From NCBI GenBank assembly GCA_001771135.1, contig MESW01000003.1, positions 235,786-299,785 of the forward strand: a DNA stretch of 64,000 bases. The letters run 5' to 3'. Both the position numbers and the translations under genes were made by a program. Positions within the stretch are counted from its first letter, which is position 1; each line of letters opens with the position of its first letter. The notes under the pieces are model-generated. The model did not search any database. It was given only the letters and a program-made list of their open reading frames with translations, and was not told where the DNA came from. This document shows positions 1 through 18,064 of the stretch, in pieces. Origin of the DNA: a candidate division CPR3 bacterium GWF2_35_18 (lineage in GTDB: Bacteria; Patescibacteriota; CPR3; GWF2-35-18).

Positions 1-640
1 ACAAAAATAACAAAGTACTTATAAATATCAACTTTGATTTAAAATTTATAAACGTTATAAAGGCGAGAACTTCTGCAATTACTGCTAACCAAAATCCACG
101 AGTATAAGTTATAGTGATTACTAATAAAGATAGAAAAGTACCAAGTATAAATATACTAGTCTTTTTAAAAGTGAAATCCTTTTTGAATAAATAAGTACCC
201 CAAATAAAAGCTAATCCCACTTGTAGGAAAAGACTCCCTTCTGTGAAAAAACGATAAATTTTATTTGGCATAATACCAATAATTCCGCCATATCCTAATT
301 TCTTTAAAATATATCCAATATGCCTAATATCAAGAATATGAACACTACTTAAAATAAAAACCATTAATGAGAAGATTCCCCAGATTAAGATACTACCTAA
401 AAATACATAAAACAATCTTTTCAAGTCTTCTTTGGAGTTGAAAATCGATGCAAAAATAATAATATAAAAATAAAAAACGTAACCATTAGCATCAGCAAAT
501 ATATTACGAATATTATTTCCTTCTAAAAAGCCAACTATCGAACCCATAATAGGAACAAATAATCCCATAAACAGACTAAAAAACAACACTTCCTTTTTTA
601 TATTCGATATCTTAACTTGCTTTCTAAAAAGACAACACAT
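1..640 (-). CDS. Partial (3' end outside window) multi-TM membrane protein, O-antigen ligase/polymerase (Wzy/WaaL)-like
   Basis: Reverse-strand translation from ATG at 640 gives MCCLFRKQVKISN... followed by many hydrophobic helices and a ...TYTRGFWLAV... segment. The frame stays open to the window start. The ORF track does not list it because no stop codon lies inside the window. Sits at the edge of the glycan locus. Confidence 0.4.
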   Translation of the reverse strand, partial: MCCLFRKQVKISNIKKEVLFFSLFMGLFVPIMGSIVGFLEGNNIRNIFADANGYVFYFYIIIFASIFNSKEDLKRLFYVFLGSILIWGIFSLMVFILSSVHILDIRHIGYILKKLGYGGIIGIMPNKIYRFFTEGSLFLQVGLAFIWGTYLFKKDFTFKKTSIFILGTFLSLLVITITYTRGFWLAVIAEVLAFITFINFKSKLIFISTLLFL

Positions 641-908
641 CCATAAAATGATACCTAATCCAATTAGAACCATCCTAATTGAGAGACTAAAAGGTAAAAC
701 CAAATACCTTCCTCCACCACCTATTATTAGTTCAACTACTAAAACGTATAAGACAAATTTGGTTATGTTTAAAAGGGTAATTTTCTTAAATAAATCTAAA
801 TATTTTATATGCATGTTTTCTGACATACTGTTTTTAAATTACATATCTGATGAATATTGGGGAGTGATATTTCTACGATATTTTCTATTGTATTTTAACT
901 ATATTCTT

Positions 909-1814
909 TTATTTAAGCAAAAAAGTCTTATAATTTCGTAAAAACACATTGTATATCCTTCTTCCGAATAAAGAAACAAAAAAGACTAATCCATATTTAA
1001 GGTTATAAAGATCATATTTCCAGGCTTGAAATAAAAAATATGTTATCCTCATTCCAGAATCTTTCTCGTAGGATAAATTATTGGCTAAGTTAAGTAAATG
1101 CGCCGAGTATAGTCTCTTTTGAACAAACTCATATCGATACTTATCTAATATCATTTTCAATGCTTTTGTATAGGCCTCATTCTTTGCTGTAATACTATCT
1201 TTTGAAAAATATGTTTTTAATAATACTTCGTCTGTATATAAAATCTGACATTGTTTTGATAAACGCAGCAATAAATCCCAATCTTGTAATCTTGGTAGTT
1301 TTGGATCAAATAAACCTACTTTTTCTAAATAAGTTTTTTTTACAACCAAACTTGGCAAAGTAATAAAATTAGCTTTAAGTAGTTCTTCATGAATATTACC
1401 CATTATTTTTTCAGGAGAATAAATTGTATTTTTTTGATCACCCTCTCTTTCAAGATTACAATAAATAGCTCCAACTTTATCACCACTTTTATCTAAAATA
1501 CCGATCTGTTTCTCTAACTTTTTGGAAAACCACTCGTCATCGCTATCCTGAAAAGCGATAAATTTTCCCTTTGCCTGTCTAATACCGATATTCCGAGATT
1601 CAGCGCCACCTAAATTTTCTTTATTTAAGATATATTTGATTCTGCTACTCTTGTAGCTGTCAATAACTTCTCTTGTATTATCAGAAGAACAATCATCTAC
1701 AACGATAAGTTCAAAATTCTTATAACTTTGTCTCATGATACTATTTATAGCTCTTTTTAGAATATAGGCGCGATTATAAGTAGGAAGTATTACACTTACT
1801 AATGATCTATACAT
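909..1814 (-). CDS. Glycosyltransferase family 2
   Basis: N-terminal SVILPTYNRAYILKRAINSIMRQSY...ELIVVDDCSSDNT and a DSDDEW motif, typical of the GT2 GT-A fold. Overlaps the next gene by 8 nt. Confidence 0.85.
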   Translation of the reverse strand: MYRSLVSVILPTYNRAYILKRAINSIMRQSYKNFELIVVDDCSSDNTREVIDSYKSSRIKYILNKENLGGAESRNIGIRQAKGKFIAFQDSDDEWFSKKLEKQIGILDKSGDKVGAIYCNLEREGDQKNTIYSPEKIMGNIHEELLKANFITLPSLVVKKTYLEKVGLFDPKLPRLQDWDLLLRLSKQCQILYTDEVLLKTYFSKDSITAKNEAYTKALKMILDKYRYEFVQKRLYSAHLLNLANNLSYEKDSGMRITYFLFQAWKYDLYNLKYGLVFFVSLFGRRIYNVFLRNYKTFLLK

Positions 1815-2979
1815 TTTTATTAATTATATTATTGATCTTTTTTCCCATAGCAGAGAAACTGTAGTTTTGGAGAAATTCTTCTCTGGCCTTTAATCCTAAT
1901 TCTCTATTCTTTTTTCTATCACGCAACATAACCTCTATTGCTTTAGAGAATTGCAAATTATCATCTGGACTAACAACAATCCCGCAATTATTTAAGACTT
2001 CAGGAATATCAGATATAGAAGTGGAAATAATTGTTTTTCCCATTGCCATGGCATCAAAAATTTTCGCTGGCATTTGACCAACTGAAGAAAGGTTTTTCTT
2101 TTGAGGAATAACAACAATATCAGCCATAGACAAAAATTCTGGAACAGTTGAAAAAGGTTGTGTCTTGAAAAAATAAAAATGATCCTTTAATTTCTTTTTT
2201 CCCAAAGCAACAATTTCTTGATTATATGTGCTATCATCAATACCAACTAAAACTAAAGCAGTATTCTTTGTATTCTTTGTATTCTTTGTATTCATTAAAC
2301 TTATAAGATCCTCAATTCCTTTATGAGGTCTTATTGTTCCCATAAATAATATTATATTTTCGGAATTACTTATCTTATATTTTTTACGCATGGTCTTACT
2401 CTCGAAGTTCTTAGGATTATAAAAGTTTTCATCTCGAGCATGCCATATAATTTCTCCACCAAATTTCTTTTTTAAAAACCTATTTGAAACAGTAATTGTA
2501 TTTGCAAAAAAAGAAATCTTCTCAAATACGAAACTATTAATTATTGAACCTATTCCGTAAGGATAAATTATCGATTTGATAATAAACTTTATTTTTTGAA
2601 AAAACCTGCTTTCTTTAAAAATTTGGAGTGAAAATCCTAGCTCCCAATCATCGATATCTAAAATTAATTTTTTATGAAATATTGTTTTGGCTACTATTCC
2701 GAAACCAAAACTTGTAAATAATGGTTTGTGTGCATAAATAATATCTCCATTTATTGATTTTATGATTCGGAGAAAATCAAAATAGGGAAAAAGCTTATGT
2801 TTAACCCTAAAATACTTAAAATTTATGCTTTTATCTTGAGAAAGAGGTTCCCAAATACCATTTCCCAAGATAGGACCGACTATTTCAACTTGGTATTTAT
2901 GACTTAAAAGTTTAGCCAATAAATATGTCCGACCTAAACAGTTTGTTGATAAATTAGGACAAAGTAAGGAAATTTTCAT
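1807..2979 (-). CDS. Glycosyltransferase family 4 (GT-B)
   Basis: C-terminal GT4 signature ...VVIPQKKNLSSVGQMPAKIFDAMAMGKTIISTSISDIPEVL (E-x7-E type). Contains an in-frame NTKNTKNTKNT repeat. Confidence 0.8.
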   Translation of the reverse strand: MKISLLCPNLSTNCLGRTYLLAKLLSHKYQVEIVGPILGNGIWEPLSQDKSINFKYFRVKHKLFPYFDFLRIIKSINGDIIYAHKPLFTSFGFGIVAKTIFHKKLILDIDDWELGFSLQIFKESRFFQKIKFIIKSIIYPYGIGSIINSFVFEKISFFANTITVSNRFLKKKFGGEIIWHARDENFYNPKNFESKTMRKKYKISNSENIILFMGTIRPHKGIEDLISLMNTKNTKNTKNTALVLVGIDDSTYNQEIVALGKKKLKDHFYFFKTQPFSTVPEFLSMADIVVIPQKKNLSSVGQMPAKIFDAMAMGKTIISTSISDIPEVLNNCGIVVSPDDNLQFSKAIEVMLRDRKKNRELGLKAREEFLQNYSFSAMGKKINNIINKNV

Positions 2980-4142
2980 TTTTTAAAATTGGTAAAAAAG
3001 TCATTAAGATTTTGAGCAGAATATTCCCATTTCCATTTCTTCATAATAGTTTTTCGGCAGTTATTTTTTAAGGATAGGTATCTTTCTTTATCGGTTAATA
3101 AACCGATAATTTCCTTCGCAAGTTTCTCCTGATCTCTATCAACTAGAATTCCATTTAAATCATTATCAATAATTTCTCTTGTTCCGGCTTCTTTCAAACC
3201 AATAACAGGAGTTTCACAGGACATAGATTCAAGAGTTGTTAGACCAAAAGGTTCTACTGAAGCAGTGTTTATAGTAATTTTAGCTTTATTGTATTCTTTA
3301 ACTAAATCATCATCTGAAATATTATTAATAAAATTAATATTTACCCTTAATGATTTTGCTTTGTTAATCAATGACTTCTCGTGAGTTGGATCTTTTCTAT
3401 TATAGATAATTTCTAATTTTGGCCTGATTTCATAGGGTATATATTGCATTGCTTCAACTAAGAAATCAAAGCTTTTGTGTGACTTCATTGTCCCAATTGA
3501 AATAATTAAATTTTCCTTTTTAATATTAAGCGGCTTAAATTTATCCACATCAACCCCAAGATAACATACCTTTGGATATATTCCATAAGCTTTAAAAACT
3601 GATTCTAAGGAATAGTATGAATTAACCAAGATAAGAGCAGCTTTTTGGGCATTAATCCGATCGAGATATCCTCGAAAGAATATATTCAACTCAAAAATTG
3701 GTTTTTTCCAAAAAGGAACCTTATTTATTTCCTTACTATAGAATTGATATTCATAAGATAATCTAAATGGTTCTTGGCAATAATATATTGAAGGTGTATG
3801 TAAAAATCTCAAAATACTTGGAGATTGAGTTATTTTACAATGGTTTATAAAAACAAAATCGTATTTTTTTTGATCAATTTCTCGGGCTATTTTCTTCTGA
3901 ACTCTTTCAAAAAATAACAGGTTTAAAAAAAAACTAATTAGTGAAAAAGGGAATTTGGGAAATACATATTTATAATCATATGTATTTTTCACAATTGGTC
4001 TTAAATCACAAAATTCTTCACATTCATCTGACGGAATATAAAGATCTATTTGGTGGTTAAATTTTTTCAATCCTTTAATTAATTCGTATAAAGCTCTTTT
4101 AGCTCCACCTGAAGGTAAAAAATGATATATTGCAATTTTCAT
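2976..4142 (-). CDS. Glycosyltransferase family 4 (GT-B)
   Basis: EPFGLTTLESMSCETPVIG motif. Overlaps the upstream gene by 4 nt. Confidence 0.8.
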   Translation of the reverse strand: MKIAIYHFLPSGGAKRALYELIKGLKKFNHQIDLYIPSDECEEFCDLRPIVKNTYDYKYVFPKFPFSLISFFLNLLFFERVQKKIAREIDQKKYDFVFINHCKITQSPSILRFLHTPSIYYCQEPFRLSYEYQFYSKEINKVPFWKKPIFELNIFFRGYLDRINAQKAALILVNSYYSLESVFKAYGIYPKVCYLGVDVDKFKPLNIKKENLIISIGTMKSHKSFDFLVEAMQYIPYEIRPKLEIIYNRKDPTHEKSLINKAKSLRVNINFINNISDDDLVKEYNKAKITINTASVEPFGLTTLESMSCETPVIGLKEAGTREIIDNDLNGILVDRDQEKLAKEIIGLLTDKERYLSLKNNCRKTIMKKWKWEYSAQNLNDFFTNFKK

Positions 4143-4194
4143 ATATTTTATATTTATCTTATGAAAAACATTACTAATTGTAATTCAAACCGCC

Positions 4195-4223
4195 TTGACA
4201 AGCAACAGCTTAATAAGTACTAT
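4195..4223 (+). promoter_or_regulatory. Sigma70-like promoter (TTGACA-17nt-TACTAT) for the DegT/ColD-like gene, followed by a GAAGGAG RBS
   Basis: TTGACA at 4195-4200, a 17-nt spacer, and TACTAT at 4218-4223. GAAGGAG lies 5 nt upstream of the ATG at 4259. Located in the divergent intergenic region. Confidence 0.45.
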
Positions 4224-4258
4224 TAAAGTCAATTTCCCCATATTATAGAAGGAGTCTT

Positions 4259-5437
4259 ATGAATCCAATAATGCTTGTTAAATCAACATTCTATCATGAA
4301 GATGAAACAAAAAAAGTACTTTGTGATTTTATTACACAGTCAAAACAGCTTAGTATGGGAACCAAATGTAGAGAATTTGAAGAAACATTTGCCAAATGGC
4401 AAGGAAAAAAATACTGCGTACTCTTTAATTCTGGAAGTTCTGCAAACCTCGCTCTAATACAAGCTGCTCTGAACTCTAATCTACTTAAACCAAAGGATAC
4501 AGTTGCTTTTTCTGGCATTACTTGGGCAACAAATGTTATGCCTTTAATCCAGCTTGGTTTAAAACCATATCCTATCGATGTCGAAATACAAACTCTAAAC
4601 TGCTCTTCATCAATACTTAAAAAAGCATATGAAAAGAAACCATTTCAAGCGCTTTTTTTAACAAATTTACTCGGACTTGCTGATGATATTACAAATATTA
4701 AAAAATTTTGTAAAAAAAATGGAATCTTATTATTTGAAGATAACTGTGAATCACTAGGCAGTGTTTCTAATGGTATTAAGCTTGGAAGTTATGGCTTTGC
4801 GTCTACCTTTTCCTTTTTTGTCGGACATCATATGTCCACAATTGAAGGAGGAGCTATTTGTACCGATAACGAAGAATTTACTAAACAATTAAAGATGGGA
4901 AGAGCCCACGGATGGGATAGACAATTAAAAAAAGCAGAACAGAAAAGTCTCAGGAAAAAATATCGCGTTTCAGATTTCTTCGCGAAGTATACTTTTTACG
5001 ACCTTGCTTATAACTTACGGCCTACTGAAATAACTGGATTTTTAGGCTTAAACCAAATGCAATACCTTGATGAAATTATTAGGAAAAGAGAGGAAAACTT
5101 TTTTGCCCTCCAAGAGATCTATGATAATGATCAGGAATTTTATCCTTTAAAAGTAAAACTCGATACAATATCAAGCTTCGCAATACCAGTGATCTGTAAG
5201 AATAAAAAGGTGCTAGAAAAATATGTAACTTTATGCGATAAAAATAAGATTGAAGTCAGACCTATTGTAGGTGGAATGATGTCTACTCAACCTTTTTATA
5301 AAAAATATATTAAAGAAAAATTTGATTTACCAAATTCAGAAATAATTAATAATTATGGTTTTTATTTCGGTAACAATCCTGAATTAACTACTGAAGAAAT
5401 CAAATACATCCTATCGATCTTCAAAAACAACAAGTAA
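4259..5437 (+). CDS. DegT/DnrJ/EryC1/StrS-family PLP/PMP-dependent sugar-modifying enzyme. The His-for-Lys motif suggests an NDP-4-keto-6-deoxyhexose 3-dehydratase (ColD/E1-like) rather than an aminotransferase.
   Basis: 392 aa. The STFSFFVGHHMSTIEGG motif aligns to the SF..xK..t.EGG PLP-lysine motif of DegT aminotransferases, but His occupies the Lys position (an HH diad), as recalled for ColD/E1 dehydratases. Confidence 0.7.
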   Translation: MNPIMLVKSTFYHEDETKKVLCDFITQSKQLSMGTKCREFEETFAKWQGKKYCVLFNSGSSANLALIQAALNSNLLKPKDTVAFSGITWATNVMPLIQLGLKPYPIDVEIQTLNCSSSILKKAYEKKPFQALFLTNLLGLADDITNIKKFCKKNGILLFEDNCESLGSVSNGIKLGSYGFASTFSFFVGHHMSTIEGGAICTDNEEFTKQLKMGRAHGWDRQLKKAEQKSLRKKYRVSDFFAKYTFYDLAYNLRPTEITGFLGLNQMQYLDEIIRKREENFFALQEIYDNDQEFYPLKVKLDTISSFAIPVICKNKKVLEKYVTLCDKNKIEVRPIVGGMMSTQPFYKKYIKEKFDLPNSEIINNYGFYFGNNPELTTEEIKYILSIFKNNK

Positions 5438-6673
5438 ATGAAAATTGCAATTATTATCTGGAAACTAGATATTAGTGGTGGTGGACAAAGACAGGCTCTT
5501 GAGCTTGCATATAATTTACAGAAAAAAAGTCATCAGGTTGATGTTTTTTGTTGTTATCTCAACAAAGAAAAATGCTACCCAAATATTATTAACAAATTAA
5601 ACGTATACGTAATCTCTTCAGAAGATTTAGAACGAACTCTCAAAAAAAAGTTATCCTTCTCTAAAAAAATCATATCAAAAATCAAAAACTATTCCCTTGA
5701 TGCAGAAAACATTTTACTAGTAAACCTTATCCAAAAAAGAAATAAAACTGTCAAATACGATGTTTTCAATTACCATGATAGTAAAGTCTTTATGATCGCT
5801 CCTTTCTTTGAGAAAGAGAAAAACTTTTGGATGATGAATGACTTACCTTCTATTCTGGACATAAAACAACGAAATAATTTGTTTAGAAAAACCGGACACG
5901 GGATTAAAAGTATCTTTAAAAAAATCGTTTTAGTTAACAAGTTTATTAATACTGAAATAAATTTGAATTTGTACGTTCGTTACATTGGGAAAGTCATGGT
6001 TCTTGACGAAAGAAATAAAAATCTTGCCAAAAGATATTTTTTTAAAAATTCTACAGTTATTCGGAGCGGAATCGATATTGAGAAATTCAAAGTATCCAAA
6101 AAACAGTACAATCTAGATAATAAAATAAATTTATTATCTACAAGTATCTTTTTCCCTCATCGAAGATACGAAGACACTATCGAAGCTCTGAATATCCTGA
6201 TCAACAATCATAAAATAACCAATTTACACTTTAATATTGTAGGTGAATCAAAAACTGATCCTGAATATTATTCATATATACAATCTTTAGTTCAAAAATA
6301 CTCTTTAAAAAAAGATATCAGTTTTCTTGGTTCAGTTTCAGATGAAAAGCTTGCTCAACTATATAAAAACTCTGATATTTTTATTTTTCCCAACACAAAC
6401 CAAACCTGGGGATTGGCAGTCTTTGAAGCTATGTTATCAGGTTGCGTAGCGATTGTGTCAAATGGATGCGGTGCTCATGAAGTATTAACTAATAAACAAA
6501 ACGCAATTATCGTGAAAGAAAAATCATCTAATGAAATAGCTATAGCCATAAAACATTTAATAACAAACAAAAAGGAAATGGAAAAAATCGGTGAAAACGG
6601 GCAAAGTTTTGTAAAGGATAATTTATCTTGGGATAAATATACAGATGAAATGTTGAAAATTTTTAGAAGCTAA
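5438..6673 (+). CDS. Glycosyltransferase family 4
   Basis: GLAVFEAMLSGCVAIVSNGCGAHEVL motif. The start abuts the stop of the upstream gene. Confidence 0.8.
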   Translation: MKIAIIIWKLDISGGGQRQALELAYNLQKKSHQVDVFCCYLNKEKCYPNIINKLNVYVISSEDLERTLKKKLSFSKKIISKIKNYSLDAENILLVNLIQKRNKTVKYDVFNYHDSKVFMIAPFFEKEKNFWMMNDLPSILDIKQRNNLFRKTGHGIKSIFKKIVLVNKFINTEINLNLYVRYIGKVMVLDERNKNLAKRYFFKNSTVIRSGIDIEKFKVSKKQYNLDNKINLLSTSIFFPHRRYEDTIEALNILINNHKITNLHFNIVGESKTDPEYYSYIQSLVQKYSLKKDISFLGSVSDEKLAQLYKNSDIFIFPNTNQTWGLAVFEAMLSGCVAIVSNGCGAHEVLTNKQNAIIVKEKSSNEIAIAIKHLITNKKEMEKIGENGQSFVKDNLSWDKYTDEMLKIFRS

Positions 6674-8376
6674 GGTGTTCCATTCTGAGTTAGAGTTCCG
6701 ATTAAACAAAGATCTCCAGTTTCATCAATGTAAATAGAATTACCTCCTCCAGAATTCTGTATGATAAAGGCTTCCCCGCTTGGGGAATTACAGCTCGCAC
6801 TGCCACCAGCACAAGTACCAGTTTCAATACACATATTTCCAGCAGAACTAATATAACCTACGGTGCTTCCAGCGCTATTTTGAATGATAAATGAGTTATC
6901 TGGAGCGGTACAAGTTGAGGAAGCAGTGCAGGTTCCATCAAGCACGATATTTCCCAAACTACTTAAAGAAGCTCTATTTGTACCTGCACTATCTTGAATA
7001 TAGAATTTCTTTTCACTTGGCTCAGCATAATAAACTCCTGATTCCTCCATTACACACTCACCAAAGCCAAGTTTGAAGTAACCATCACCATTCCAATCAT
7101 CTCCCCAACTATTTTTTACAATCCAATAACTGGTATTATAATCACCAGTGTCATTATATCCAACAAGAACAACAGCATGATTTGCATAAATGGAACCAAC
7201 ACACCTCAAAATATCACTATCCCAATAAGCAAAACTTGGAGGATCAACAGTCCCCACATCAAACGCTATAGACAAAGGACCATATTCAATCAAATCGGCT
7301 TTCATTGTTTCAATATTTGCAGGAACACCCCAAGCAGCCGTTGTTCCCATCGAATCAATTTTCGTTAATCTACTTGACCAGTCTGAGCAGCGATCAGAAC
7401 AGGTACAATCACTACAATTCCAATTGACTTGATAAGTACACTCATCATCACAAACTCCACCTGATCCCTGTGGACATCCAGATGCGCCCCCGTCAATATA
7501 CGGCATACAAGACTCATCAGGTATTCCATAATCCTTAATATAAGTTAAAGCGTAGTCGCTCCAACCACCATTACAAGAATTATTAGCAAAACAATCTGAC
7601 ACTAAATATTGTTCAGAAAAATCCAAATCATAATTAGGATTATTGGTTACAACGTTATATGCTCCTTCTACTGTACCTACTGCTGAATATGCCCAACAAC
7701 TCCCACAATACCCTTGATTTTTTACAGACGTTACCCAGTTACTACCGTTATAATTTCGCCAATCAAAGGTGGATGGACTAGATGTCAAACCTGAAGTTGG
7801 GTTTTTTGGTGCTTCCTCTACCGGTTTATTTTGATACTCCCAAGTGGATGTATTTGTTCTTCCTTTGGTAGATTTTCCAACGATATCCATTATTTTATTC
7901 ACAGATCCCAGATGCTTTCCATCGCTTCTTGAAACACACATAGAATACTCATAAGAATACGGATCTTTCCCATCAGCCACAGAAACTAAATCATAACCTT
8001 TTTGGGTACAATATGAAAATTCCTCTCCGCATTTGCCACGATAAAATTCCCAATCACTGCACGATTTTTTATCAGGAAAAATACAAGCTCCTTGCTGACT
8101 GCCATCATTTTCCGTAATATTCTGGTATTCATATCCCATTTCTTTACAATAAACTGCTGCTGGATTCGATACACCTAGCTTCGGTTGTTCAATTTCTGTT
8201 ATATTTTCGTTTAATGCTTTTAATGATAGATTTACACTAGATGAAGGAAAATATAGTTGAAATCCTAAAAATAATATTAATATAATCAGTAAAAAATCAA
8301 AACCATACAGAATAAGTAACGGTTTATTTTTATGACTAAAAGGTGAAAATTGAGAAAGCTCTTTGAAAATAGTCAT
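6670..8376 (-). CDS. Membrane-anchored papain-family (C1A) cysteine peptidase with an N-terminal DUF333 (putative hemolysin-like) domain and three C-terminal repeats of about 40 aa
   Basis: N-terminal TM helix. A DUF333-like Cys pattern NPAAVYC...GACIF...CSDWEFYRGKC. Papain motifs NQGYCGSCWAYSAVG (catalytic Cys), NHAVVLVGY (His) and VKNSWGDDWNGDGYF (Asn/Trp). C-terminal F(I/Y)IQ(N/D)SAG... repeats occur three times. Confidence 0.75.
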   Translation of the reverse strand: MTIFKELSQFSPFSHKNKPLLILYGFDFLLIILILFLGFQLYFPSSSVNLSLKALNENITEIEQPKLGVSNPAAVYCKEMGYEYQNITENDGSQQGACIFPDKKSCSDWEFYRGKCGEEFSYCTQKGYDLVSVADGKDPYSYEYSMCVSRSDGKHLGSVNKIMDIVGKSTKGRTNTSTWEYQNKPVEEAPKNPTSGLTSSPSTFDWRNYNGSNWVTSVKNQGYCGSCWAYSAVGTVEGAYNVVTNNPNYDLDFSEQYLVSDCFANNSCNGGWSDYALTYIKDYGIPDESCMPYIDGGASGCPQGSGGVCDDECTYQVNWNCSDCTCSDRCSDWSSRLTKIDSMGTTAAWGVPANIETMKADLIEYGPLSIAFDVGTVDPPSFAYWDSDILRCVGSIYANHAVVLVGYNDTGDYNTSYWIVKNSWGDDWNGDGYFKLGFGECVMEESGVYYAEPSEKKFYIQDSAGTNRASLSSLGNIVLDGTCTASSTCTAPDNSFIIQNSAGSTVGYISSAGNMCIETGTCAGGSASCNSPSGEAFIIQNSGGGNSIYIDETGDLCLIGTLTQNGTP

Positions 8377-8400
8377 TTTAAATCCTTTGATGAAATAGAT

Positions 8401-9066
8401 TTAATTCCCTAATCTAACTACTACATTACCGGTATCTTGTAAAAACATTTTTGCTCCACCGAAATTATTTACCATCTCGAGATTATTGGTCGAATTCAGA
8501 TAACCAATATTCCCCGTAGTTGTACCTCCATCCTGACTGAAAGTAATTATTGGCTGATGAGCTTCGTTAACATTGTCCGTATCAGCTTCTATTTTGAGTT
8601 CTATTCCTCCTGTATCCGCTAAATGCAGTTTTGTCGCAGGAGCCGTCGTTCCAACACCCACATATCCGTTATACTTCCAAGTCATAATGTTTCTGGTAGA
8701 ACTGGTTAAAGTATCGTTTAAAAGTCTTAAATCTAACCGATCTAAAGAGCTTGCTCCAGTGTTAAAATTGAATGCACGACGTCCAGTAGTGTTTGCCGCT
8801 GCTTTGTAGGTCACAAATGCGTCATTATTGGCAGCTGAGGCTTCATTAAGAAAACCTGCTGCATACCCCCATCCCTTTCTTAAATGTAAAGGAAATTGAG
8901 GACTGGATGTCCCAATCCCGACATTGCCCGAGACATTAGCATACATATTGGTACCAGAATTAATCCATGAGTTTGCTTCAGCAAATACATCTTTTACTGG
9001 TTTAAAGTTACTTAATAACACACCTATAATTAACAAAAGAAAAAGTATTATTATATTTTTCCTCAT
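8401..9066 (-). CDS. Secreted protein with a signal peptide and repeated GxVGIGTxxPxxxLHL motifs (tail-fibre-like beta-rich repeat)
   Basis: Signal peptide MRKNIIILFLLLIIGVLL. Motifs GNVGIGTSSPQFPLHL and GYVGVGTTAPATKLHL. Confidence 0.5.
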   Translation of the reverse strand: MRKNIIILFLLLIIGVLLSNFKPVKDVFAEANSWINSGTNMYANVSGNVGIGTSSPQFPLHLRKGWGYAAGFLNEASAANNDAFVTYKAAANTTGRRAFNFNTGASSLDRLDLRLLNDTLTSSTRNIMTWKYNGYVGVGTTAPATKLHLADTGGIELKIEADTDNVNEAHQPIITFSQDGGTTTGNIGYLNSTNNLEMVNNFGGAKMFLQDTGNVVVRLGN

Positions 9067-10526
9067 AGACCCTCCTTTAAAGGAATTAATCTGTTTCTAA
9101 TAAAATTGGGAGTAATTTTTTTTAAAATCAACCAGTCTTCTGGATTAAATAATTTAATAATAAAAACTATAATAAAATAAACAATTATATAGGCAGGAAT
9201 TAATATCAGGTTTCTGCCGGTAAAAATTATTAATAAACCCATCATACTGCTTGCAAAAATAATCTTCAAGACTTCTTTCGAAATATCTAATCTAAAGATA
9301 GAATGATTAATATATAAATAACCTAAAATAAAACCAACACTTTCGTTTGCCACTGTAGCAATAGCTGCTCCTTTGATTCCTATCACAGGTATCAAAATCA
9401 GATTAAGGCTAACATTAATCACTAGATTTGCTATTGCTAAGTAAAGATTAATAACAGGGGTTTTTGAAGCATTAATAATTGCACTTGTAATTGCTGAGTT
9501 AAAAAGAGGAATTAAGGCCCAAATTAATATTTGCATTACTACAATAGCCGGAGCAAATTGGTCTCCGTAGAGAAAAAGTATTCCTTTATCAGCAAGTAAT
9601 GTTCCTCCAACAGCTAAAGGAAAAGCAAAAACATTTAACCATTTTAATAGCTGGTTTGTAGATTTAAGTACCAATGGAGAATTTTTATATAGATTTTGGC
9701 TTAAGGTAGGAAAAACCGTAGTCGAAAGTATTTCAGGAATGATTTTAAAAGTTTCCATAATTTTATAAGAAGCTGAATAAAATCCCACGAAAGATAAACC
9801 TAAAAATATCTCAATAAAAATCGTATCTACCCGATAATAAATAATTCCAATGATAGTCATCAAAGCAAAAGGAAAAGTTCCCCGCATGATGTTGATCCAA
9901 TCAACTCTCCCAAAAACAAATCGAATAGAATAGTTCGTCTCTTTACGAAGGGTAAAATGGCAAAACAAAGCTTTGATTATGGAGATGCCAAACATAGTAT
10001 AGACAAGATAAGTTACACCAAAACCATTTAAAACAAGAACGATTCCAATAAGTCCATAAAAAACAGAATCAAAAATTCTTAAGATTCCTTCATATTTCAT
10101 ATTCTCTTTTACACGATAAAGAATGATCCAGTGGCTAGAATATACATTTATTAAGGATGCAAAGTTTAAAACGTTAAATAATACTCTAATCGTTCCATCT
10201 AAAATAAAAATTTGGGTATAAAGGAAAAAAAGAAGCGTAAAAATAAAGTTAACTAAAAAACGCAATGTAAATATTTGAGACTGATAATTATTTACTTTAT
10301 CAATTTCGATTTTGGGAATTTGCCGAATTGTAAAAATATTTAAACCAAAGGTTGAAATACTATCTAATATTGCAATTACAGATGCTGCATAAGCAAGTTT
10401 TCCAAGCTCACCGGAACCTAACTTACGAGCGATAATTATTCCGACTAAAGCCAGTGCAACTTTACCAATTACATTAGTTAATAGTAAAATCGTCGAGTTA
10501 TTAAAAACTCTTTTTGATACGCTCAT
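9063..10526 (-). CDS. Polysaccharide biosynthesis protein / Wzx-type flippase (MOP superfamily)
   Basis: 487 aa with about 12-14 predicted TM helices, in the usual position within a glycan locus. Confidence 0.7.
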   Translation of the reverse strand: MSVSKRVFNNSTILLLTNVIGKVALALVGIIIARKLGSGELGKLAYAASVIAILDSISTFGLNIFTIRQIPKIEIDKVNNYQSQIFTLRFLVNFIFTLLFFLYTQIFILDGTIRVLFNVLNFASLINVYSSHWIILYRVKENMKYEGILRIFDSVFYGLIGIVLVLNGFGVTYLVYTMFGISIIKALFCHFTLRKETNYSIRFVFGRVDWINIMRGTFPFALMTIIGIIYYRVDTIFIEIFLGLSFVGFYSASYKIMETFKIIPEILSTTVFPTLSQNLYKNSPLVLKSTNQLLKWLNVFAFPLAVGGTLLADKGILFLYGDQFAPAIVVMQILIWALIPLFNSAITSAIINASKTPVINLYLAIANLVINVSLNLILIPVIGIKGAAIATVANESVGFILGYLYINHSIFRLDISKEVLKIIFASSMMGLLIIFTGRNLILIPAYIIVYFIIVFIIKLFNPEDWLILKKITPNFIRNRLIPLKEGL

Positions 10527-10548
10527 CTTGAGATTGGATTATATTCTT

Positions 10549-11832
10549 CTATCTTCCGATACCTTTATAAATAATTCTCTTAGTTATGATTTTTTCTTTA
10601 TCGAGCTTATTCATACCATCCGCTATAACTTTGATATTCTTATGTTTGAATATCTTCTCTTCCAAACCTTTGAATTTATCATGCATTGTGCCAAGAATGA
10701 TCGCGGTTGATTTTTGAAGAAGTTCATCTAATGATTTTACGTTGCTGAGCTGAGGAATATACGGATCAAAAACAAGTAAATCAGCTTCGTATGATTTTAG
10801 AATTTTTTGAATAACCAAACACGGACTTTCCCGTAGATCTCCAACATTTGCTTTGTAGCTTAATCCCAATAATCCTATCTTTGTGCCTTTAATTGGCATT
10901 TTAACCTCATTTAGGCCTTCTTGTAATCGAGAAACAAGATATTTTGGCATAGAGTTATTTACTTCACGCGCGGTTTTCAAAAAAAGATGATTGAATCCAC
11001 TTTTTTCCGCGCGATGAATGAGATAATATGGATCAACTGCAATACAATGGCCTCCTACTCCCCGACTTGGAAAGTGAACCATAAAGGAAAAAGGTTTGTT
11101 TGATGCTGCTTTTAAAGTTTCTATAAGATCAATTCCAAGAACATCAAAAGATTGTGCAAGTTCATTCACAAAAGCAATATTTACGTCACGAAATGAATTT
11201 TCAATAATTTTTGAGGCTTCAGCAACCTTAATATTTGAAACTTCATGAATCTCGCCATTCAATATACTTCTATAAAAGTCGGCTACTTCTTTAGTCTTAT
11301 TAGTAGGAATTGCTCCGATATTTCGAGTAATATTATACACATTCCATTTTGGATCTCCCGGATTAATTCTTTCAGGACAAAAAGCCATTGTGTAATCTTT
11401 ACCGGCAACTAAACCTGATACTTCCTTTACAATTGGAATTAATATTTCTTCACATGTTCCAGGATTTACAGTTGATTCAATAACAATCTTATCTCCCTTG
11501 CGTAAATATTTCGCAGCTACTGCCGTGGCATTTTTGATCGGTTCATAGTTTGGAGTATAATCTTCATAAACAGGAGTTGGAACACAAACAATGATAATAT
11601 CACTGTTTTTCATAATATCCGGATTGCTAGAAACATTTAACACATCTAGTTCATATAGATCTTTTGCACACACTTCATCATCGATAGGACATTTCTTCTT
11701 TACAATCTTTTTTATTTTATCGTCAGAACGATTGTAACCAACAGCATCATATTGTTTTTGCTTGGCAATCGCGCACAGAAGTGGTAAGCCAACATAACCT
11801 AAACCGATCACAGATATTTTTTGTTTTTTCAT
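10549..11832 (-). CDS. Nucleotide-sugar dehydrogenase (UDP-glucose/GDP-mannose dehydrogenase family, WbpA/WecC-like)
   Basis: The start is revised to MKKQKISVIGLGYVGLPL (Rossmann GxGxxG), which has an AAGGAAGG RBS. The listed longer ORF overlaps the neighbouring gene. Catalytic-Cys motif GGHCIAVDPYYL. Confidence 0.85.
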   Translation of the reverse strand: MKKQKISVIGLGYVGLPLLCAIAKQKQYDAVGYNRSDDKIKKIVKKKCPIDDEVCAKDLYELDVLNVSSNPDIMKNSDIIIVCVPTPVYEDYTPNYEPIKNATAVAAKYLRKGDKIVIESTVNPGTCEEILIPIVKEVSGLVAGKDYTMAFCPERINPGDPKWNVYNITRNIGAIPTNKTKEVADFYRSILNGEIHEVSNIKVAEASKIIENSFRDVNIAFVNELAQSFDVLGIDLIETLKAASNKPFSFMVHFPSRGVGGHCIAVDPYYLIHRAEKSGFNHLFLKTAREVNNSMPKYLVSRLQEGLNEVKMPIKGTKIGLLGLSYKANVGDLRESPCLVIQKILKSYEADLLVFDPYIPQLSNVKSLDELLQKSTAIILGTMHDKFKGLEEKIFKHKNIKVIADGMNKLDKEKIITKRIIYKGIGR

Positions 11833-11848
11833 AAACCTTCCTTTTGAA

Positions 11849-12802
11849 TTATTTGACTTTCTCTCTCCAGTAATTAAGCAGATCTTCCATGGTTTTGGTA
11901 AATGGGATTTCTGGCTTCCAACCGGTAGCTTTGTTGAATTTGGAATAATCACCGAGTAAAACTTCGACATCAGATGGTCTCATTCTTTTTGGATCCTGTT
12001 TCACTTCAATTTTTACCTTTGACATATCAATTAACATTTTTAACATATCGCGAATGTAGATCGTTGTCCCACTAGCGATATTATAAACCTCTCCCTGCTC
12101 ACATTCTTGGACCGCTAGATAATAACCACGAACCATGTCTCGAACGTCAGTAAAATCCCGTTGCGAATCAGTATTTCCTACAAATAGAACCGGCTTTTGT
12201 TTGCCTACTTCGATCATTGCAACCTGTTTCGCAAAGTTTGAAGTCACAAAAACATCTCCGCGTCGTGGACCAGTGTGATTAAAACCACGGGTGCGGATAA
12301 TTTTCAGACCATAACTTTGATGATACTGATAACCCATATAATCCATCGCCATTTTAGAAACAGCGTATGGTGAAAGCGGTCGTAATTCGTTTTTTTCCGT
12401 TATTGGAGTTTCTTCAGGTTTAACAAGTCCATATTCTTCTGAAGAACAAGCAATCTGAATTACCGGGGTTTGACCTGACTTGCGTATAGCTTCAAAAAGA
12501 TTATTCGATCCCACCACATTAACCTCAAAAGTTGAGGTCGGAGAAATCCATGAAGTAGGCACAAAAGATTGTGCGGCGAGGTGAAAAACCCAATCGAATT
12601 GATGATCTTTGAAAATATTGTTTAGAGAATGAACATCAAGTAAATCTCCTTCAAGTAGATGCACTTTGTGCTCAATATCTTTGATGTGATCCTTTGGTGA
12701 GCGCCAACGATAGAGACCATAAACTTCATGTCCTTCTTTAAGAAGTAATTCGGCAAGATGAGATCCGGCAAAACCGGTTATACCTGTAATAAATGCTTTC
12801 AT
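11849..12802 (-). CDS. GDP-mannose 4,6-dehydratase-family SDR (Gmd-like)
   Basis: Start revised to MKAFITGITGFAGSHLAELLLKEGHEVYG, which overlaps the upstream stop as ATGA and has a GGAAAGGA RBS. Motifs CSSEEYG, YAVSK and GFNHTGPRRG resemble the Gmd TSE, YxxxK and NHESPRRG motifs. Confidence 0.7.
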   Translation of the reverse strand: MKAFITGITGFAGSHLAELLLKEGHEVYGLYRWRSPKDHIKDIEHKVHLLEGDLLDVHSLNNIFKDHQFDWVFHLAAQSFVPTSWISPTSTFEVNVVGSNNLFEAIRKSGQTPVIQIACSSEEYGLVKPEETPITEKNELRPLSPYAVSKMAMDYMGYQYHQSYGLKIIRTRGFNHTGPRRGDVFVTSNFAKQVAMIEVGKQKPVLFVGNTDSQRDFTDVRDMVRGYYLAVQECEQGEVYNIASGTTIYIRDMLKMLIDMSKVKIEVKQDPKRMRPSDVEVLLGDYSKFNKATGWKPEIPFTKTMEDLLNYWREKVK

Positions 12803-13767
12803 TGTTTTCCTTTCCAATAATTAAAAATATCTTCTAAAGTTTTTTCAATTGGGATCTGAGGCTTCCATTTGGTATCTTTATGAAACTTTCCGTAATTACA
12901 GATTGTAACAGGATTATCAACAGCTCTCAACTTCTTTTTATCAATTTCTATCTTAATATTTTCTCCCGAAAATTGAATTAATTTATCTAAAAGCCATCTC
13001 ACCTTATAACCTTTACCTGAACCTAAATTGTAAACGTCTCCAACTTTGCATTTTTCTACTGCTAAAATATATGCTTTAACAATATCTCTAACATCAGTAA
13101 AATCTCTAGTTACATCGAGATTCCCGACAGAAATAATTTTTTCATTTTCATCCTTTGTCTTTGACTTTTCAATAATCTGCTTCGCGAATGAAGGAATCAC
13201 AAATTCCTCAGTTTGACGAGGCCCGGTATGATTGAAAGCACGAATCCTAATAATCTTTAAACCAAATGACTTAAAATAAGTATACGCAGACAAGTCTTGA
13301 GCTACTTTCGAAAATCCATACGGAGAGACTGGATTTAATGCAACTGTTTCGTCAATGTATGAGACAGATTTGGGTGTCACGCCATATTCTTGAGCAGAAC
13401 CGATGATAAGGATTTTAGGATTTAGCTTTTGTTTTCTAACTTCTTCAAAAATATTTAACTGCACTTCTAAATTATTCAAAATAGTTGGGCTTGCTGAATC
13501 TGTAGCATTACGACCAGAAGACAAAGCCGCCAAGTGATAGATGACGTCTGGTTTTGATTCTTTGATGATTTTCTGCACAAAAGATGAATCCCTTAGATTA
13601 CCTTTTAGAATGTTTATCTTTTTAGTCACAGCAGAGTTGATATCTAACCCACTGCTAAAACTCGTTCCAAAGACTTTTAAGTTTTTGTTAGTCAAATCAT
13701 TTTGAAACAGCTCTTCCGCCAAGAATGATCCCACAAAACCGGTAATTCCGGTAATTAAAATGTTCAT
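12799..13767 (-). CDS. Gmd/Rmd-family SDR paralog, possibly a reductase
   Basis: MNILITGITGFVGSFLAEEL, YGFSK and AFNHTGPRQ motifs. GSAQEYG carries Gln where Gmd has its catalytic Glu, which suggests an Rmd-like reductase. This is an inference. Confidence 0.65.
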   Translation of the reverse strand: MNILITGITGFVGSFLAEELFQNDLTNKNLKVFGTSFSSGLDINSAVTKKINILKGNLRDSSFVQKIIKESKPDVIYHLAALSSGRNATDSASPTILNNLEVQLNIFEEVRKQKLNPKILIIGSAQEYGVTPKSVSYIDETVALNPVSPYGFSKVAQDLSAYTYFKSFGLKIIRIRAFNHTGPRQTEEFVIPSFAKQIIEKSKTKDENEKIISVGNLDVTRDFTDVRDIVKAYILAVEKCKVGDVYNLGSGKGYKVRWLLDKLIQFSGENIKIEIDKKKLRAVDNPVTICNYGKFHKDTKWKPQIPIEKTLEDIFNYWKGKQ

Positions 13768-14675
13768 AATTTTAACTCACTATTTTTTTCCTTCGTTTGT
13801 TTTTTTATCTCTTCTAACCCTTGTTTCAATGATAACATCTTTAATCCCAACTCTTTTGCGGTTTTCTCTGTGTTTAGTGAAACATCAAGAGGTGCTTTGG
13901 TTCTTTTTGTCTTTTCTATATATTTTGAATAGGTAATTCCCTTGACTAGACTTTTATCTAGCCCAAATACTTCCGCAACCCCTCGAGCCAGATCTACCCA
14001 ATTGACATAACTTGTATCGGCAAAATGAAAAACTCCTTGTTTTTTATTCTTAATAATTAATCTTATTCCTTCGGCAATTTTATCAATAAAAATTGGTTTC
14101 AAAAACTGATCTTTCACAACCGTAATTTCTTCTTTGTTTTGAAGCTTCGGAATCATCCACCGCACACAATCGTTTTTGAGTGGATAGTTTGCGCGGTAAG
14201 GATAATTGATTCGAATAATGCTATATTTACAACCACCATTTTTAACAATTTCTTCCGCCTGATATTTTGTCTCAGCGTAAAAATTCTGCGGTTCCGGTTT
14301 ATCTTCTTCTTTATAATTACCTCGGTCCCCTTTAAAAACAAAACCGGTCGACATAAAAATAAAATGGCTATTATGACTTTTACTCTCAATAACTAAACTT
14401 CTTGTTCCTTCGACGTTAATTTTCGTAGCTAAGTTATGATCTTTTTCACAAAGCTCTAAATCCGCAATTGCGGCAAGATGTAAAACAATATCTGGATTTT
14501 CTTGAATAAAAACTTCAGAAACCCTATTTTTATCAGTTATGTCTAAAAAGATATTTTTGATTTCCCTATTCTGATGCGAGGTTCTATCTCCACTCACAAT
14601 TTCAAAATCTTGATGTAAAAGCTCAATTATTCTACTGCCGATTAATCCGGAACCTCCGGTAATGAGTAATTTCAT
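13764..14675 (-). CDS. NAD(P)-dependent sugar epimerase/reductase (RmlD- or Fcl/ColC-like SDR)
   Basis: MKLLITGGSGLIGSRI Rossmann motif and a YAETK (YxxxK) motif. 303 aa. Confidence 0.6.
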   Translation of the reverse strand: MKLLITGGSGLIGSRIIELLHQDFEIVSGDRTSHQNREIKNIFLDITDKNRVSEVFIQENPDIVLHLAAIADLELCEKDHNLATKINVEGTRSLVIESKSHNSHFIFMSTGFVFKGDRGNYKEEDKPEPQNFYAETKYQAEEIVKNGGCKYSIIRINYPYRANYPLKNDCVRWMIPKLQNKEEITVVKDQFLKPIFIDKIAEGIRLIIKNKKQGVFHFADTSYVNWVDLARGVAEVFGLDKSLVKGITYSKYIEKTKRTKAPLDVSLNTEKTAKELGLKMLSLKQGLEEIKKQTKEKNSELKL

Positions 14676-14786
14676 AGAATTTAAGTTTAATATTTATTGT
14701 CATCCTAAAATTCATTCAGGATCTTACAATATACAATAACCCCTAGATTCCGGATCAAGTCCGGAATGACAGAAAAAAAGATATCT

Positions 14787-15761
14787 TCATTTATTCTCAC
14801 CAAGCAACTTTTCCCACCAACGGTGGTTTTTGATATACCAGTCGATTGTTTGTTCCATCGCTTCGTTAAAATTCCACTTTGCCTGCCAACCTAATTCTGT
14901 TCTAATTTTTGAAACATCAATTGATCTTCTTTGGGTATGACCAACCGGTTCTTTTACAAAGTCGATAAGATCTTTGGAACGATCCATAATCGTTAAAATA
15001 AGTTCCGTTACTTCCAAAACTGACTTTTCACAAGAAGCACCAATATTATAAACCTGACCATTAGTATTTTTCCCATGCAAAACATAGTCAATAGCTTCTA
15101 CCTGATCTTCAACATAGATCCAATCACGCATATGTTTTCCTTCACCATGAATCGGAAGTTTTTTACCCTCTAAAGCTTGTATAATAAAAAAAGGAATTAA
15201 TTTCGTTGGATATTGATACGGTCCAAAATTATTGGCGCAACGTAAAATAGTTACAGGTGTTTCGTAAGTCAAATAATAAGAATAAGCCAACCTGTCAGAT
15301 CCGGATTTTGAAGCGGCTCCCGGTGTCATTGGATTCAGAGAATCTGTTTCCGTAAAAAGCTTTGCCGCATCCTTTTCAATCACTGAATCTCCATATACCA
15401 CATAGTCAGAAACATGAATCAGTTTTCGAATTTTATCTTTTCTGATAGCCTCAAGTAGATTAAAAGTACCGACAATATCTGTTGTGAGAAAAGATCCATC
15501 ACTATCAAATCTAAGACTCGTTGCAAGATTAATTATAACTTCAGCGTCATTCACAAGGGGTTGAATGATTTTACTATCTCTAATATCACCCTCTACAAAT
15601 TTGTATTTATGGTCACCTACAATCTCTTCCATACTATCCATATCATGCTGGTAAGACAGTTTATCCATATTCACAATTTCGTATCCTGGATATTTTTTAA
15701 AAAGATATTTGATTAAATGTTTTCCGATAAAACCGGAACCACCGATAATTAAAAGTTTCAT
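14787..15761 (-). CDS. RmlB-like (dTDP-glucose 4,6-dehydratase family) paralog that has lost the catalytic residues
   Basis: Collinear similarity to the adjacent RmlB across most of its length (NNFGPY, GKKLPIHGEGKHMRDWIYVED). However, YSASK is replaced by GAASK and TDEVFG by SDYVVYG. Confidence 0.7.
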   Translation of the reverse strand: MKLLIIGGSGFIGKHLIKYLFKKYPGYEIVNMDKLSYQHDMDSMEEIVGDHKYKFVEGDIRDSKIIQPLVNDAEVIINLATSLRFDSDGSFLTTDIVGTFNLLEAIRKDKIRKLIHVSDYVVYGDSVIEKDAAKLFTETDSLNPMTPGAASKSGSDRLAYSYYLTYETPVTILRCANNFGPYQYPTKLIPFFIIQALEGKKLPIHGEGKHMRDWIYVEDQVEAIDYVLHGKNTNGQVYNIGASCEKSVLEVTELILTIMDRSKDLIDFVKEPVGHTQRRSIDVSKIRTELGWQAKWNFNEAMEQTIDWYIKNHRWWEKLLGENK

Positions 15762-15764
15762 AGA

Positions 15765-16772: not shown

Positions 16773-17206
16773 TATTTTACAACTCCTTGAATTAATTCTT
16801 CCTCCGAATATTCAACCTGCTCATCTTTAAGGCTCGGATCGTAAGCCGGATCTGGATAATTCACAAGCCAGGCAACTTCGTTACCGATATTTAGTAAACC
16901 GGTTGCGATATTTTTAGGAATAAATAGGCGTTGCGGATTCTCTGCATCCAATATGTGTTCTTCCTTTTCCGCTGTACCTGGTTTATATAAAGTAATCTTC
17001 ATCTTACCTTTCAGACAAACATATCGAGCCGCTCGCACCCGATGCAGATGATAACCTTTAAACATTCCCGGATTAGTTGCCGCTAGATAAACCTCCGTTT
17101 TTGTATCACTAATATCTTTAAACAATTCTATTAAAAATCCATTATCTTGTCCGGAATGATCTTTTGTTCCTACTTTTTTTGCTGATTCGATTTTTGCTAG
17201 AGCCAT
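16772..17206 (-). CDS. Cupin-fold sugar-nucleotide isomerase/epimerase: FdtA/QdtA/WxcM-like 3,4-ketoisomerase or a short RmlC-like protein
   Basis: 144 aa. KGYHLHR resembles the WxcM/FdtA RGxHAHK motif rather than RmlC RGLHFQ. Too short for a canonical RmlC. Confidence 0.5.
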   Translation of the reverse strand: MALAKIESAKKVGTKDHSGQDNGFLIELFKDISDTKTEVYLAATNPGMFKGYHLHRVRAARYVCLKGKMKITLYKPGTAEKEEHILDAENPQRLFIPKNIATGLLNIGNEVAWLVNYPDPAYDPSLKDEQVEYSEEELIQGVVK

Positions 17207-17239
17207 AAGAAATTAATCCTTTCATCTATAACTAAAATT

Positions 17240-18016: not shown

Positions 18017-18064
18017 TATGATTCCTCCATAGATTTATTACTTTAATTTTTCTTTATTCTTCCG

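Follow-up and report, generated by a model that had tools for sequence, protein, structure and literature searches.

What does a protein of the sugar aminotransferase type do when histidine stands in place of its Schiff-base lysine? The question is posed by a gene in a stretch of 64,000 nucleotides from the candidate division CPR3 bacterium GWF2_35_18 (contig MESW01000003.1, positions 235,786 to 299,785), which is the whole of the DNA analysed here and is referred to as the window. The exact protein is recorded at NCBI as 'hypothetical protein A2X44_01250' of this bacterium, which belongs to the candidate phyla radiation (Patescibacteria). An earlier note on this DNA took it for a ColD/E1-type 3-dehydratase, implying a 3,6-dideoxy sugar, and the core of that reading is supported by the analysis that follows. 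We consider it probable that the gene encodes a ColD-type, iron-sulfur-free nucleotide-sugar 3-dehydratase dependent on pyridoxamine or pyridoxal 5'-phosphate (PMP/PLP), acting in the pathway proposed below as a whole, and a guanosine diphosphate (GDP)-linked 3,6-dideoxyhexose may reasonably be expected as the outcome. The gene and its catalytic motif are as follows.

4259-5437, plus strand: putative ColD-type PMP/PLP-dependent nucleoside diphosphate (NDP)-4-keto-6-deoxyhexose 3-dehydratase, 392 amino acids (aa), ATG start, from homology and a structural model.
4811-4852, plus strand: active-site motif SFFVGHHMSTIEGG, residues 185-198, exact translation.

The 392-aa protein carries the Pfam domain DegT_DnrJ_EryC1 (PF01041) in full length over residues 18-387 (E 1.1e-59), and it shares family and fold with the DegT/DnrJ/EryC1/StrS aminotransferases such as GDP-perosamine synthase, PseC and WbpE. 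Those enzymes differ in having a Schiff-base Lys (S-F-x-x-x-K motif) at the position in question, and they transaminate C4 or C3 with no C3 deoxygenation. Here the position is taken by His190 (codon 4826-4828), with His191 (codon 4829-4831) behind it, just as the earlier note had read. In phmmer alignments the 'GHH' of the CPR3 protein lies over the 'SHH' of ColD, the preceding residue being Gly in the former and Ser187 in the latter, and His190 falls in the column of ColD His188. Mutant structures in the PDB pin this first His of ColD as the catalytic residue: H188N (3b8x, 'SNH'), H188K (2r0t, 'SKH') and S187N/H188K (3gr9, 'NKH'), the last of which turns ColD into an aminotransferase of the GDP-perosamine type. 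The 'AHH' of E1 (His220) occupies the same column, and the HH pair that the note ascribed to ColD and E1 is present in both, whereas Lys ('GKN') stands there in each of eight authentic DegT aminotransferases that were drawn from loci related to this one and aligned with MAFFT. No alternative Lys lies within or beside the HH motif, and the alignment gave neither a catalytic Lys elsewhere in the protein nor an HH pair in an authentic aminotransferase.

The change from Lys to His is a family trait, neither a chance event nor private to this protein. HH is present in 119 of 120 close homologues, and among 123 full-length representatives of the nearest clusters at 50% identity the first His is found in every one and the second in 106, with Gln at the second position in 12. 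The cofactor motifs around the catalytic column (GSSAN, EDNCE, Ser185 and EGG) are invariant in the clade, as are Arg221, Asn252, Arg254 and Arg334, which correspond in the clade alignment (A1) to ColD Arg219, Asn248, Arg250 and Arg331. By the roles of their ColD counterparts, we take the GSSAN loop, the Asp of EDNCE, Ser185, Arg221, Asn252/Arg254 (of the partner subunit) and Arg334 to make the cofactor and NDP-sugar contacts; for ColD Arg219, Asn248 and Arg331 these roles are presumed, with conservation in their favour. The invariant His column and the invariant cofactor motifs together argue for a selected, active His enzyme.

As to the type of 3-dehydratase, the ColD half of the earlier assignment stood and the E1 half did not. 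A search against all PDB sequences returned four E. coli ColD/WbdK entries first (4.8e-54 to 1.2e-52), two E1 entries next (6.5e-43 and 1.2e-41), then 9wvy, a 'putative NDP-4-keto-6-deoxyglucose-3-dehydratase' (3.5e-30), and after it authentic aminotransferases at 1e-25 or weaker. An AlphaFold (AF2) model of the protein, with a mean local confidence (pLDDT) of 93 and a predicted template modelling score (pTM) of 0.90, gave Foldseek TM scores of 0.89-0.90 to ColD, 0.86-0.87 to E1 and 0.79-0.84 to aminotransferases. For each of the 82 family members the ColD score exceeds the E1 score. The Cys-rich segment of E1 aligns to a Cys-free stretch of the CPR3 protein, RAHGWDRQLKKAEQKSLRKKY. A single E1 cluster Cys is kept, Cys163 in EDNCE, and the E1 Cys insert occurs in none of the 123 nearest cluster representatives. 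The top NCBIfam model for the protein is RfbH (2e-61), but on this equivalog (NF011936) the protein reaches 208 bits where the cut-off is 423. The earlier note had proposed a check for an E3 reductase; the plant-ferredoxin CX4CX2C motif is absent from every open reading frame (ORF) of 80 aa or more in the window, so there is no E3 candidate within the 64 kb. The models for cytidine diphosphate (CDP)-glucose synthase and 4,6-dehydratase (G1P_cyt_trans and CDP_4_6_dhtase) scored well below cut-off for all neighbours. Because the Cys motif is absent, the RfbH score lies below its cut-off, no E3 candidate is encoded and the fold is nearest to ColD, the enzyme is on sequence and model grounds ColD-like in its mechanism class and not E1-type, and the reading as an E1/E3 enzyme was rejected.

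Comparison with known systems is in keeping with this placement. ColD/WbdK (E. coli O55, PDB 2GMS, 3B8X, 2R0T and 3GR9; also Yersinia pseudotuberculosis) is the nearest in both sequence and fold, and has in common with the CPR3 protein the HH pair, the lack of iron-sulfur Cys, a length of about 390 aa and the four conserved residues named above. E1 (AscC/DdhC/RfbH, CDP-6-deoxy-L-threo-D-glycero-4-hexulose 3-dehydrase; PDB 3BCX) resembles it in DegT fold and HH pair, at 30% identity and a TM score of 0.86, but is longer (about 437 aa), carries a [2Fe-2S] cluster whose four Cys ligands are one in its EDCC motif and those of its Cys-rich insert, needs E3 and acts on a CDP-sugar. The SpnQ-type enzymes of actinomycete natural products, which are thymidine diphosphate (TDP)-4-keto-2,6-dideoxyglucose 3-dehydratases, are likewise DegT proteins with His for Lys, and differ in their iron-sulfur motif, their ferredoxin/flavodoxin reductases and an upstream Nudix-type 2,3-dehydratase; no 2,3-dehydratase was found among the cluster genes scanned (ORFs up to 36 kb). 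It has been described that E1 and SpnQ hold a [2Fe-2S] cluster on four Cys and need a reductase, while ColD, which has no cluster, hydrolyses its enamine and relies on glutamate for recharging (PMC8987622).

The resemblance to ColD is nevertheless a distant one. Identity is 33% to E. coli ColD (181 bits) and 30% to E1 (160 bits). The characterised ColD enzymes, which come from E. coli, Yersinia and also C. jejuni, are within 62-67% identity of each other (PMC10440746), and at 33% the CPR3 protein falls short of orthologue-level similarity to them. Clusters at 50% identity that are nearer to it than ColD number more than 150, and 658 representatives match at or below 1e-30. There are thousands of homologues of about 387-395 aa at 55-63% identity, chiefly in metagenome-assembled genomes of Patescibacteria, and these relationships place the protein in a separate, deep and biochemically uncharacterised clade that is mostly patescibacterial. 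A search of genome contigs with the single protein gave three distant DegT matches (26-28%) in unrelated bacteria. Homologues are named DegT aminotransferase at NCBI and 'E1' or 'CDP-6-deoxy-D-xylo-4-hexulose-3-dehydrase' at JGI; these labels, like the 'hypothetical' of the protein itself, appear to be wrong or imprecise. The low identity to ColD means that a substrate assignment cannot rest on ColD similarity alone.

Four members of the family have inteins (Intein_splicing plus LAGLIDADG_3) that interrupt active-site motifs (P0165, P0171, P0172 and P0127). Three of these inteins sit inside the catalytic motif, GHH(M/L)|S...HN|STIEGG, between the equivalents of Met192 and Ser193 of the CPR3 protein, and one is placed after EDN|C in the cofactor Asp motif.

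Evidence on the substrate came from the gene neighbourhoods of the family. A metagenome scan with the clade alignment gave 80 loci at 46-58% identity, 34 of which have at least 3 kb on both sides of the gene, and ORFs were classified against a panel of solved Gmd, Rmd and heptose-dehydratase sequences together with genes checked by NCBIfam (the gmd of locus L004 scored 535 against a cut-off of 415, and Fcl-like genes scored 250-287). A canonical-type gmd is present in 17 of the 34 loci and an fcl/colC-like gene in 22, with one or the other in 25, or in 28 when Gmd-like genes of lower identity are included. A GT11 glycosyltransferase (GT) gene was found in five, RmlB in one and RmlA in none. 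The commonest order is gmd, His-type DegT, fcl-like, and the linkage to gmd, to fcl-like genes of the colC type and often to GT11 is a context like that of ColD. Among the cluster representatives there are also natural fusions, in all of which the catalytic His is kept: one joins a full-length Gmd to the His-DegT domain (P0235), four join an Fcl-like domain to it on the N- or C-terminal side (P0217, P0233, P0234 and P0251), and two, close relatives of the CPR3 protein, combine the dehydratase with a small, divergent, Rmd-like short-chain dehydrogenase/reductase (SDR) (P0186, and P0123, which is 54% identical to the CPR3 protein and whose SDR is not Fcl).

The CPR3 protein itself fits this company. 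Of the 80 columns with 95% or more conservation in 42 Gmd/Fcl-linked homologues it keeps 79, E. coli ColD keeps 52 and E1 41, and with 79 kept there is no sign of a shift in specificity. In a neighbour-joining tree it groups with the proteins of loci L001, L003 and L005, and the sister of this group is L004, a locus that combines gmd with both an fcl-like gene and GT11. The best reading is that the clade dehydrates GDP-4-keto-6-deoxy-D-mannose, and that the CPR3 enzyme would do the same. An origin of the substrate in GDP-mannose is supported by the family context and the gene fusions and not by the locus in the window.

If the homology with ColD is a guide, PMP would form a ketimine at C4 of GDP-4-keto-6-deoxy-D-mannose, and His190, at the position of the aminotransferase Schiff-base Lys, would abstract the C4' proton of the cofactor, whereupon the C3 hydroxyl would be expelled. 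The enamine so formed would be released and hydrolysed to GDP-4-keto-3,6-dideoxy-D-mannose and ammonia, and L-glutamate would recharge PLP to PMP with no need of an E3-type reductase. The same chemistry, PLP with L-glutamate and no reductase, is described for the C3-dehydratases of C. jejuni HS:5/HS:11, with a shift of the heptose analogue from 616 to 600 m/z (PMC10440746). Reduction of the keto product at C4, whether or not C5 is epimerised as well, would then give a GDP-3,6-dideoxyhexose, and the glycosyltransferase encoded next to the dehydratase (5438-6673, translationally adjacent) may transfer this sugar into a surface glycan assembled by the cluster at 909-18997. It is likely, on these grounds, that the organism makes a 3,6-dideoxyhexose, and that it is probably displayed at the surface. 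That the sugar is L-colitose specifically is unproven: L-colitose needs a ColC/Fcl-type epimerase-reductase and none is encoded in the 64-kb window.

The dehydratase gene lies within a flippase-dependent surface-glycan cluster, 909-18997. Its features at the dehydratase end are given here.

909-1814: GT2 glycosyltransferase gene.
1807-4142: two GT4 glycosyltransferase genes.
4195-4223, plus strand: promoter-like site (TTGACA, 17 nt, TACTAT) 5' of the dehydratase gene, within the 116 bp that separate it from its divergent neighbour, a consensus match only, at 10 of 12 positions.
4248-4254, plus strand: Shine-Dalgarno-like GAAGGAG, 4 nt 5' of the dehydratase ATG, read from the sequence.
5438-6673, plus strand: GT4 glycosyltransferase, 411 aa, candidate transferase for the pathway product (Pfam Glycos_transf_1, 1e-29).
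6670-8376: secreted papain-family (C1) cysteine protease with an N-terminal DUF333 and Gly/Ser/Thr-rich C-terminal repeats ('FIIQNSAG...').
8401-9066: 221-aa protein after the protease, no Pfam match.

Promoter-like consensus sites are no commoner in this region than in shuffled sequence. The ATG of the GT4 gene (5438) directly follows the TAA of the dehydratase gene, and since a pair of His-DegT and GT4 genes, 0-6 nt apart, is also found in L001, L003 and L005, GT4 is a conserved partner in the subclade. In this the locus differs from that of ColD, having a juxtaposed GT4 instead of adjacent gmd and colC. The GC content of positions 1-6000, the glycosyltransferase/dehydratase end, is 28-30%, the lowest in the window, with about 33-37% elsewhere; this would fit a variable module of serotype-like character that may have been exchanged horizontally.

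The cluster continues with genes for a Wzx-type flippase, a nucleotide-sugar dehydrogenase and two SDRs of the Gmd/Rmd family (here W_I and W_J), and then with RmlD-like, RmlB-like, RmlB, small cupin, RmlA-like and GalE genes. Those that bear on the pathway are the following.

11849-12802, minus strand: W_I, Gmd/Rmd-family SDR carrying SSE and NHTGPRRG; translation may alternatively start at a TTG at 12817.
12799-13767, minus strand: W_J, second Gmd/Rmd-family SDR, with the dehydratase Glu replaced (SAQ) and the motif NHTGPRQ.
13764-14675: RmlD-like gene inside the RmlA-RmlC-RmlB-RmlB'-RmlD set, 168 bits against a cut-off of 224.
14787-15761: second RmlB paralogue, directly downstream of the true RmlB (TIGR01181, 338 against a cut-off of 365).
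15765-16772: true RmlB, scoring 485 bits (cut-off 365).

These neighbours had been put forward as a Gmd-like dehydratase (11849-12802) and two candidate 4-reductases which together would suffice for a colitose-like sugar. W_I does belong to the Gmd/Rmd family, and no other gene in the window is a candidate source of GDP-4-keto-6-deoxymannose, but with 193 on TIGR01472 against a cut-off of 415 W_I is not a canonical Gmd. Its closest solved relatives are the Rmd of A. thermoaerophilus (7.7e-81, 42%) and the GDP-heptose 4,6-dehydratase of C. jejuni (7us5; 1.3e-68, 39%), followed by P. aeruginosa Rmd and then Gmds at 35-38% identity; NCBI names it 'Gmd' and JGI names its homologues 'Rmd'. The Ser-Ser-Glu triad is common to Gmd, the C. 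jejuni heptose dehydratase and A. thermoaerophilus Rmd and so does not discriminate a dehydratase from a reductase. W_I shares 'PRRG' with the dehydratases, where Rmds have 'PGQ'; this contrast, for which we know of no experimental basis, favours a dehydratase role for W_I, which may be either of the two. W_J looks like an Rmd (top match 4.4e-65, 41% identity) and is a candidate 4-ketoreductase, in line with one of the two proposed reductases. The other, at 13764-14675, lies in the Rml set and is more likely a dTDP-rhamnose reductase (dTDP, deoxythymidine diphosphate) than a reductase of the dehydratase pathway. W_I and W_J might between them provide both the 4-keto intermediate and the later reduction. 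That the neighbours suffice for a colitose-like sugar is not established, the window containing neither a ColC/Fcl-type gene nor manC.

Several observations weigh against GDP-4-keto-6-deoxy-D-mannose as the substrate. Canonical gmd, fcl/colC-like genes and manC were all absent when the whole window was searched by tblastn, and its sole nucleotidyltransferase is RmlA-like. The nearest thing to a gmd/colC neighbourhood in the window is the Gmd/Rmd-family pair, 6.4 kb from the dehydratase, and these two SDRs were rejected as dedicated partners of the dehydratase, because relatives devoid of a ColD-like gene conserve them too. Homologues of W_I at 67-75% identity occur in a block conserved in many genomes of the candidate phyla radiation (CPR), RmlA-RmlC-RmlB-RmlD-(UDPG/MGDP dehydrogenase)-SDR-GT2/GtrA-PMT_2, which has no ColD-like gene; the RmlA-to-SDR part is found in the window at 10549-18016 and in loci L089-L092, often followed by GT2/GtrA and PMT_2 (ArnC/ArnT-like). 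Around the closest W_J-W_I pair, that of L092, no DegT gene lies within 10 kb, and the RmlB duplication is also found on that contig. It is possible that W_I acts on the product of the neighbouring dehydrogenase. With RmlA and RmlB both encoded in the window, dTDP-4-keto-6-deoxyglucose is certainly available nearby. The nearest relatives with a GT4 partner, L001 and L005, have no gmd or fcl within 10 kb. Finally, the clade appears to be without any assayed enzyme, and at 33% the CPR3 protein is about as far from ColD as ColD is from E1 (31.5%).

One alternative keeps the dehydration step and changes what follows. It supposes that no ColC/Fcl takes part and that the Rmd-like W_J reduces the product to a GDP-linked 3,6-dideoxyhexose of the D-series, which the adjacent GT4 would transfer as an alpha-D residue; the sugar might be tyvelose-like, D-arabino or D-lyxo. 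We regard this as possible but less likely than not. Hints towards it are the window itself, without an Fcl-like gene and with a Gmd/Rmd-family pair nearby, and locus L020, which combines ColD-like, Gmd-like and Rmd-like genes and has no Fcl. The fusion of P0123 to a non-Fcl SDR may mark a reduction independent of ColC. A further hint is the GT4 partner, whereas Fcl-linked loci have GT11: GT4 is a retaining family using GDP-alpha-D-Man or D-Rha donors, and GT11 is inverting. The D-series 3,6-dideoxyhexoses are, to our knowledge, known only as CDP-sugars. If true, the reading would establish a novel route to a nucleotide sugar, located in Patescibacteria.

It is unlikely, but deserves weighing, that the enzyme acts on dTDP-4-keto-6-deoxy-D-glucose made by the RmlA and RmlB of the cluster, giving a dTDP-3,6-dideoxyhexose, which would make it an iron-sulfur-free TDP-sugar 3-dehydratase. 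Within the glycan cluster itself, 8-13 kb off, are RmlA-like, RmlC-like, true RmlB, RmlB paralogue and RmlD-like genes, both manC and a canonical gmd are missing from the window, and 9wvy is a detectable relative. Yet 9wvy scores 109 bits where ColD scores 187, and the Rml genes make up a full dTDP-L-rhamnose set, sufficient by itself, which CPR genomes without the dehydratase also conserve. The family, moreover, is hardly ever found with RmlA or RmlB and mostly with Gmd or Fcl (0, 1 and 25 of 34 loci, as above), is fused to Gmd and Fcl-like domains, and is represented here by a protein that keeps nearly all of the Gmd/Fcl-linked columns. A literature search for iron-sulfur-free TDP-sugar 3-dehydratase structures gave nothing pertinent.

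There is a still slimmer chance that the substrate is a GDP-6-deoxy-4-keto-heptose, as in C. jejuni HS:5/HS:11, and the product a 3,6-dideoxyheptose. The nearest characterised dehydratase to W_I is the C. jejuni GDP-D-glycero-D-manno-heptose 4,6-dehydratase (7us5), ColD-type enzymes accept the heptose analogue, and the window gene set resembles the modular C. jejuni layout of 4,6-dehydratase, 3-dehydratase, cupin epimerase and SDR 4-reductase (PMC10440746). Against this, the cluster showed no GDP-heptose genes of the GmhA/HddA/GmhB/HddC type, and its RmlA-like protein reaches 75 bits on HddC, where the cut-off is 300; the linkage of the family is to canonical Gmd, and the C. jejuni enzymes are far closer to E. 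coli ColD than is the CPR3 protein.

Equally improbable is that the protein is no dehydratase at all and is instead a DegT aminotransferase or isomerase with another base, or an inactive paralogue. The clade offers no biochemical datum to set against such a view, and SpnQ shows aminotransferase activity under some conditions, but wild-type ColD and E1 do not transaminate (PMC8987622), Lys is lacking in the motif, and the first His of all 123 representatives and the invariant cofactor motifs speak for an active His enzyme. An E1 (RfbH/AscC/DdhC)-type CDP-4-keto-6-deoxyglucose 3-dehydratase with an E3 reductase has the least chance of all: the top rank of RfbH among NCBIfam models, the automatic JGI names and the shared HH pair are outweighed by the RfbH score, the iron-sulfur Cys absent from the protein and all representatives, the lack of an E3 candidate in the window and of any neighbouring CDP-glucose gene that passes its cut-off, and the higher ColD scores throughout the family.

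A ColD-type dehydratase acting on a GDP-linked sugar would be a divergent addition to a known enzyme type, with no new kind of biology, and its re-annotation would be useful for a very large CPR family. The 3,6-dideoxyhexoses have so far been mainly immunodominant O-antigen sugars, in enterobacteria, Vibrio and Yersinia. Thousands of Patescibacteria/CPR genomes carry the clade, and a ColD-type re-annotation predicts that surface 3,6-dideoxyhexoses are common on these ultra-small, host-attached bacteria, where they could bear on host and phage recognition; a literature search on colitose in Patescibacteria/CPR gave nothing pertinent. The clade may also serve as a deep-branching, iron-sulfur-free set of enzymes with which to compare the mechanisms of ColD and E1.

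Beyond the glycan cluster the window holds a homologue of pyruvoyl-dependent histidine decarboxylase (23654-24541; Pfam HDC, 1.1e-55). Beside it are two ORFs, 24551-25495 and 25586-26290, which have no Pfam match and are paralogous to each other (27% identity, E 2e-16), the longer having a CxxC...CxxC insert. Two further proteins are surface- or cell-wall-related: a CHAP-domain protein of 792 aa with a TTG start (30024-32402) and a 685-aa protein with LTD, PKD and DUF5689 domains (33400-35457).

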